Part shown: in pieces, positions 10,784 through 10,948 of the stretch
Layout: each line of letters starts with the position of its first letter
How positions within the stretch are numbered: position 1 is the first letter of the stretch
From: Escherichia coli 042
GTDB taxonomy: Bacteria > Pseudomonadota > Gammaproteobacteria > Enterobacterales > Enterobacteriaceae
Assembly: GCF_000027125.1 (NCBI RefSeq)
Contig: NC_017626.1
Strand: one strand, 5' to 3'
Length of the DNA: 64,000 bases
Made by a program: the position numbers and the translations under genes
The notes under the pieces: generated by a model
Told to the model about the DNA's origin: nothing
The model's database searches: none
What the model saw: the letters and a program-made list of their open reading frames with translations, nothing else

Positions 10784-10948
10784 GTGATTTATAACCCGTT
10801 TTTGCAATACACAGTGCAATACACAAATGATGAAAACAGCCAGAACCTTCCAGAAAAAACAAAAACGACGAACAAGAAAAAAATCTTTTTCTTTCATTTG
10901 GTTACTAAAAAAATCAGGACAGGTCGCACTGTTGTTACGGCGTGATGT

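Follow-up and report, generated by a model that had tools for sequence, protein, structure and literature searches.

A tandem repeat upstream of a satellite integrase gene is the doubled motif of helper-embedded PICIs and a probable pair of integrase arm-type sites

Results

A capsid-forming satellite splits a prophage terL gene

The window analysed here (the whole stretch of DNA, 64 kb in length) holds on its minus strand the features listed in Table 1. The satellite genes within it encode the integrase, two AlpA-family proteins, a Bro-N protein, a DUF927 primase, SSB, PerC, a major capsid protein and a prohead protease, and on the same strand, 5′ of int, lie the lysis genes, HNH gene, terS and terL fragment of a prophage. 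Intact terL genes from 11 phages (Evi, phi467 and others) are 96–98% identical to the window, and the match ends at 10956. The far end of the island falls outside the window, and its features were read from the closest genomes, L003 (E. coli UMNF18) and L179 (isolate NRZ96606), the second of which is 99.1% identical to window positions 1–3000. The remaining ~5 kb of the island in these relatives contains portal, connector and HNH genes, terS, a full terL of the satellite's own and a P arm with the partner of the motif described below. In both L003 and L179, ~500 nt of non-coding DNA separate the satellite terL from the remainder of the prophage terL, which encodes its C-terminal part. Gene content, the split terL and the comparison of attachment sites together identify the element as a ~15-kb satellite of the capsid-forming PICI type, inserted site-specifically within a co-oriented prophage terL.

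Both integrase domains are recognised with high significance (PF13356, E=5.7e-18; PF00589, E=1.4e-18), and the N-terminal one is homologous to PDB entries 3JU0 and 3JTZ; the PDB entries for such N-domains are DNA-free structures only. The truncated terL is fused in frame through attL to int, giving an ORF of 807 aa (9560–11983, minus strand). Translational coupling through this fusion was considered and rejected: in 7 of the 10 same-site relatives checked the frame is closed by a stop 39 codons ahead of int, and in other site groups by a stop at 2–44 codons. The fusion is not conserved and is thus apparently incidental.

Table 1. Features of the satellite, its left attachment site and the interrupted helper gene
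Feature	Position	Strand	Remarks
Satellite body, capsid-forming PICI type	1..10962	-	Continues beyond the window start
AlpA-family protein, longer 'A2' type	9019..9327	-	PF05930
AlpA-family protein, short 'A1' type	9361..9594	-	PF05930; candidate excisionase/regulator
Tyrosine integrase, 407 aa, P4/CP4-like	9560..10783	-	Arm-DNA-bind_3 (PF13356, aa 6-92) and Phage_integrase catalytic domain
Doubled motif TGTGTATTGCA-C-TGTGTATTGCA	10803..10825	-	Half-sites 10825-10815 and 10813-10803; putative attL P' arm-type pair
P' arm spacer	10826..10955	-	Core to doubled motif; A/T-rich, TTCTGG x2
Crossover core TTACCAA (plus strand TTGGTAA)	10956..10962	-	Common to attL, attR and the uninterrupted terL attB
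Helper prophage terL, N-terminal fragment	10963..11983	-	First 342 codons; co-oriented with int

The crossover core was defined from the attL of the window and of L003, the attR of L003 and L179, and the terL of phage Evi. When attP is reconstructed, the core becomes a palindrome, TTCTT-ACC-AAGAA.

A tandem repeat lies between the core and int and has a partner at the far island end

An earlier note on this DNA had pointed to two adjoining 11-bp copies of a repeat about 40 bp upstream of the integrase start, inside the junction region. Both copies are present exactly: TGCAATACACA occurs on the plus strand at 10803–10813 and again at 10815–10825, with a lone G between the two and hence a period of 12. 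On the minus strand the repeat reads TGTGTATTGCAcTGTGTATTGCA, with TGTGTATTGCACTGTGTATTGCA from 10825 to 10803, and since the integrase gene is on the minus strand we take TGTGTATTGCA-C-TGTGTATTGCA as the functional reading. The placement upstream of int also stands, with the distance corrected from a flat 40 bp to 20–42 nt 5′ of the ATG at 10783. The repeat is ~135 nt from the crossover core (centre at 10959), and it does lie within the junction, given where the terL homology stops and the core begins. This pair is the sole exact 11-nt repeat at an offset of 12 within the 64-kb window, far above the chance expectation of 0.02 such repeats per window in first-order Markov simulations with matching dinucleotide content. 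No further copy of TGCAATACACA, at up to 1 mismatch, was found anywhere in the window. The only other short exact tandem of such a kind in the window is at 32297–32340, where TAATTCCAAG comes after two tandem copies of AAAATATTCCAAG, the exact 11-nt repeat here having an offset of 13.

The earlier note had proposed a search for further copies near the other end of the island, and a second doubled copy, co-oriented with the first, was indeed found there in both L003 and L179. It reads CGTGTATTGCGCTGTGTATTGCT, or by half-sites CGTGTATTGCG-C-TGTGTATTGCT, and stands ahead of the far-end core at a distance of 79–81 nt.

Two further sets of short repeats were seen in the attachment-site arms. Core-proximal of the doubled motif in the window is a pair of TTCTGG sequences with a 10-nt period (CCAGAA on the plus strand at 10840–10845 and 10850–10855). 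In elements with other motif classes (L089 at 4816–4830 and 5039–5053, L025 at 13721–13750 and L027 at 928–955), each arm has a related box, GTTCTGG/GTTCCAG with a run of T, ahead of its doubled motif. The TTCTGG-type box is kept across motif classes, as is the A2-type AlpA, so it may be a site for a recombination directionality factor (RDF) or a bending protein. Between the satellite terL stop and the P arm (L003 17070–17226, L179 14350–14505) are three direct copies of GCGGGTTA(T/C) and, ~90 nt later, three inverted copies of TAACCCGC, which could represent a cos/terS recognition site or the replication origin of the satellite.

The doubled motif and its spacing are conserved among related islands

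Our sample from IMG/VR comprised 19 loci found with the window integrase and a further ~60 with integrases 48–70% identical. Wherever the upstream region could be assessed, the doubled motif was present 12–45 nt before the int ATG in all sampled loci except one, the fis PICI L040. These loci span at least 10 unrelated upstream contexts, including the lambda-like major capsid gene E (L004, L005) and a lambda-like portal gene (L024). Across ~1.4 Mb of related loci searched on both strands, doubled TGTATTGC, allowing 1 mismatch in each half, is confined to the int strand, with one copy ahead of int and, in loci that extend to the far end, another there. The pair of pairs is found in every related island with a reachable far end, in at least 8 flanking contexts. 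Distances from the two pairs to the block of identity shared by the island ends are 133–137 and 77–83 nt, with a sum of 214–216 nt, for four cores in addition to the terL core. Most of 31 other two-ended loci have the same spacing; 9 in which the automatic search had returned chance blocks were excluded from the geometry. When eight P' arms from different site groups were aligned, the only conserved block was GTATTGC in each half-site (2 × 7 columns), outside which invariant columns are isolated, and mean column identity was 58%. Three tandem half-sites precede int in two loci (TGTGTATTGCA x3 in L053 at 9944–9980, and GTGTATCACAAG x3 in L140), so copy number on the P' arm can vary.

A short repeat with only two copies in the window might, in principle, be a functionless product of chance or replication slippage. 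Such an origin is scarcely credible given the simulated expectation, the duplication of the motif at the other end and its invariance in dozens of loci whose flanks have diverged, and we regard it as refuted by this conservation.

The repeat is an instance of a published motif

Tommasini, Mageeney & Williams (2023; NAR Genom Bioinform 5:lqad036, PMC10111431) described a "doubled motif", tgTGTATTGCantgTGTATTGCa, in helper-embedded PICIs (HE-PICIs). The integrases of these elements form a clade that uses 14 target sites in prophage late genes, one of which is A:Terminase_1:245/246, and each attP carries two co-oriented copies of the motif, one 81 ± 2 bp upstream of the attP centre and the other 132 ± 2 bp downstream (PMC10111431). 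The repeat in the window is the int-proximal copy of this motif, and the feature is therefore already known. The minus strand at 10825–10803 fits tgTGTATTGCantgTGTATTGCa, with tandem TGTATTGC cores; the 12-nt period, the two co-oriented copies per attP and the published spacing of about -81/+132 are all matched by the P' pair and by the far-end pair of L003 and L179. The satellite likewise belongs with the late-gene-targeting integrase clade and is co-oriented within terL at A:Terminase_1:245/246, terL being split at 10956–10962 with the lysis, HNH, terS and terL′ genes and int all on the minus strand. There is no difference in kind from the published elements, and for the window itself our analysis adds nothing beyond a further instance.

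The 2023 paper also reported one case of two satellites in a single helper (PMC10111431). We observed another arrangement that fits two satellites embedded in one helper: IMG/VR contig 2836755666_000018 (loci L030 and L036) is a prophage contig with two HE-PICI integrases, 70% and 51% identical to that of the window, each with a doubled motif.

Sister clades carry other doubled motifs, which follow the integrase N-terminus

The doubled motif was reported to be absent from fis PICIs, and the protein that binds it was left open between the integrase arm domain, AlpA and another protein (PMC10111431); our literature search found no later paper on what binds it. In our comparison, elements of sister clades, whose P4-like integrases are related to that of the window, have doubled motifs of other sequences, in which the 12-nt period and the geometry are unchanged. 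A cfPICI lying between roxA and phoQ carries GGTGTAGTTAAT x2 at both ends, 131 and ~83 nt from the core GGACATATTT. The packaged fis-site cfPICI vB_KppS-Ant, whose attP is intact, has TGTATAAACA x2 on each arm, as do many fis PICIs at their sites. GTGGGGTACTCG x2 is found at both ends of other fis PICIs and GTGTATCAC(A/T), in two to three copies, in a further sister group. The published absence from fis PICIs therefore holds only for the exact sequence. Across the loci compared here, the doubled-motif architecture is general and its sequence is clade-specific.

Which class of motif an element carries is closely related to the N-terminus of its integrase. Pairs of integrases with the same motif class (34 pairs) are 60–92% identical over the N-terminal 100 aa (mean 75), with the mid domain falling as low as 41%, whereas for pairs from different classes (102 pairs) the N-terminal 100 aa are only 43–62% identical (mean 54), with the mid domain reaching 86%. 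Among HE-PICI integrases, which recognise different cores and share a common motif, the N-termini are 58–84% identical and the mid domains 38–73%. A strand segment of the N-domain differs by class, being SFVFFYR in the H class, SWVFTYR in the A class and SW[MI]FKYR in the G class. The decisive cases are natural chimeras, and these come from fis-site sister elements and not from the TGTATTGC class. The DNA of two fis-type elements, L150 and L129, matches at 97% identity as far as the motif and at 95% beyond about int codon 62. Their integrases are 97% identical over residues 63–100, 98% over 101–200 and 91% from 201 to the end, in contrast to 47% over residues 1–62, and the motif is of the G-class in L150 and of the A-class in L129. 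Similarly, each attP arm in contig c474 bears a G-class pair within sequence otherwise homologous to the arms of the A-class vB_KppS-Ant, and the c474 integrase compared with that of the A-class L090 is 94% identical in the mid domain and 56% over residues 1–62. The swap on both arms was seen in c474 only, the L150 contig ending before the far end. On these comparative grounds, the identity of the motif tracks integrase residues 1–62 and not the core-binding or catalytic domains, with the reservation that in the excised circle ~350 bp hold the motif together with the core and the start of int, and part of the co-variation is owed to this physical linkage.

The same comparisons bear on the possibility, left open by Tommasini et al. 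(PMC10111431), that the doubled motif is bound not by the integrase but by an AlpA-family protein of the satellite acting as an RDF or a transcriptional activator. Tandem direct repeats in the attachment-site arms are the usual form of RDF sites, and an A1-type AlpA is encoded by every sampled element of the TGTATTGC class. AlpA relatives are also activators of int in CP4-57. Nevertheless, we consider this reading unlikely. In the fis-site sister elements the motif does not co-vary with AlpA: the proteins of L150 and L129 differ at 4 of 93 residues, with 93–96% identity across motif classes set against 62–74% within a class. A1-type AlpAs are only 44–64% identical where the motif is invariant, compared with 58–84% for the integrase N-termini, and most HE-PICIs have no AlpA of the A2 type, which so cannot be a universal binder. 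Moreover, the pairs on the two arms are equivalent and provide four half-sites, whereas classical RDF sites are on one arm, and if AlpA took them the integrase arm domain would be left without a candidate site.

Binding by a host or helper factor, such as a bending protein resembling IHF or Fis or a helper late protein that times excision, would suit the dependence of HE-PICIs on helper induction. This seems to us less likely still, as the motif is unlike an IHF site, its class switches with integrase residues 1–62 in the same host and at the same fis target, and it is retained in quite different prophages (an HK97-like terL here; the lambda-like E and B genes in L005 and L024). On the comparisons made here, the doubled motif is more probably read by the integrase arm domain.

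Position of the repeat relative to int expression signals

In the window the motif precedes the int start codon at short range, and in most relatives a Shine-Dalgarno sequence follows directly after it. Our scan found no sigma-70 consensus promoter or terminator in 10600–11100. Transcription may instead enter from the helper late operon, in which case the int-proximal pair would lie between incoming transcription and the int ribosome-binding region. Given a pair placed before the int start, no predicted promoter and a Shine-Dalgarno sequence after the motif, occupancy of the pair could, by analogy with KplE1 IntS and P4 Int, also repress int, and a secondary role of the repeats in int autoregulation, and with it the int promoter operator that the earlier note named as an alternative, is possible.

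That the repeat might be purely an operator or promoter element of int, with no part in recombination, is a separate proposition. It would account for a motif just 5′ of the int ATG in all relatives, before the Shine-Dalgarno region in most, but we hold it to be very improbable. The identical, co-oriented pair at the far end points into the remnant of the helper gene with no satellite gene after it, the phasing of the pairs to the crossover is fixed whichever gene is targeted, and no sigma-70 consensus promoter was found in the scanned interval.

Discussion

We consider it likely that the satellite's own integrase uses the repeat as its P' pair of arm-type sites. An integrase with an Arm-DNA-bind_3 domain must have arm sites, and the earlier note's suggestion that repeats here are typical of such sites gains support from that domain, from the partner pair at the far end and from the co-variation of the motif with the domain. 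The repeats are on both attachment-site arms and outside the core, whose sequence TTACCAA is unlike TGTGTATTGCA; the change of motif with the integrase N-domain (L150/L129 and c474/L090) points the same way, within the limits set by linkage.

A mechanism can be outlined on this basis. Each ~11-nt half-site would be read by the N-terminal arm-binding domain (approximately residues 1–62) of one integrase protomer, with the second co-oriented pair on the other arm supplied by the far island end. In the excised circle the two pairs would flank the 7-nt crossover TTACCAA, ~80 nt upstream and ~133 nt downstream of it, and we infer that the four half-sites may correspond to the four protomers of the recombining tetramer. 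Bound integrase would bridge the arms and the core TTACCAA in an intasome competent for integration into the helper prophage terL, and together with AlpA and probably host bending proteins the same sites would serve an excisive complex by which, once the helper is induced, terL is made whole again.

What this analysis adds to the 2023 paper is modest, namely the generality of the doubled-motif architecture across sister clades and comparative evidence by which the motif is assigned to integrase residues 1 to ~62. A broader reading joins these to the position of the P' pair, and here our doubt slightly outweighs our confidence. It proposes that the doubled motif and integrase residues 1–62 form an exchangeable specificity cassette across the P4-like PICI integrases, with at least 5 classes that share a 5′ (G)TGTA-like part, the 12-nt period and the -80/+133 geometry, differ in the 3′ 4–5 nt and are swapped by recombination independently of the core-targeting domains; and that the int-proximal pair, when occupied by integrase, may act as a brake on transcription that reads through from the late operon of the helper and so would time excision of the satellite and hence repair of the helper terL.

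The doubled motif belongs to the set of half-sites that defines the attP of helper-embedded satellites. These satellites occupy essential packaging and head genes of prophages, and precise excision is needed for a viable helper. Were it known that the integrase N-terminus rather than AlpA reads the motif, the question left by the 2023 paper would be settled. Such knowledge would also offer a signature for delimiting satellites (a doubled motif 12–45 nt before int with a partner ~214 nt away in attP) and would suggest a modular route to re-engineering arm specificity.

Our reading can be compared with what is known of other integrases. For the family with the DUF4102/PF13356 domain, the defined arm sites that we found in the literature are limited to the KplE1 paper and its citation for P4, and no consensus emerges from them. 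In KplE1 (CPS-53), arm-type P' sites of IntS overlap the intS promoter in attL and IntS represses int (PMC2951348), and P4 Int represses its own gene (Piazzolla 2006, as cited in PMC2951348). The arrangement here is the same in that int adjoins attL and the putative arm-type P' sites are 5′ of int; it differs in that no promoter is mapped or predicted and in that the site sequences are unrelated. As related in PMC2951348, repression of int in KplE1 and P4 involves both Int and the RDF (TorI and Vis, respectively). A wider parallel is provided by the arm sites of lambda Int (P1, P2 and P'1–P'3) and the paired sites of mycobacteriophage L5, where a heterobivalent integrase binds sites on both arms outside the core. 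There, as at the sites proposed here, the arm sites are tandem direct repeats of ~10–12 nt with sequences unrelated to those of the core sites. The arm-binding domain is of a different family in our case (PF13356, P4/CP4-like), with binding that is putative, and the layout is a symmetric 2+2, in contrast to the 2+3 of lambda.
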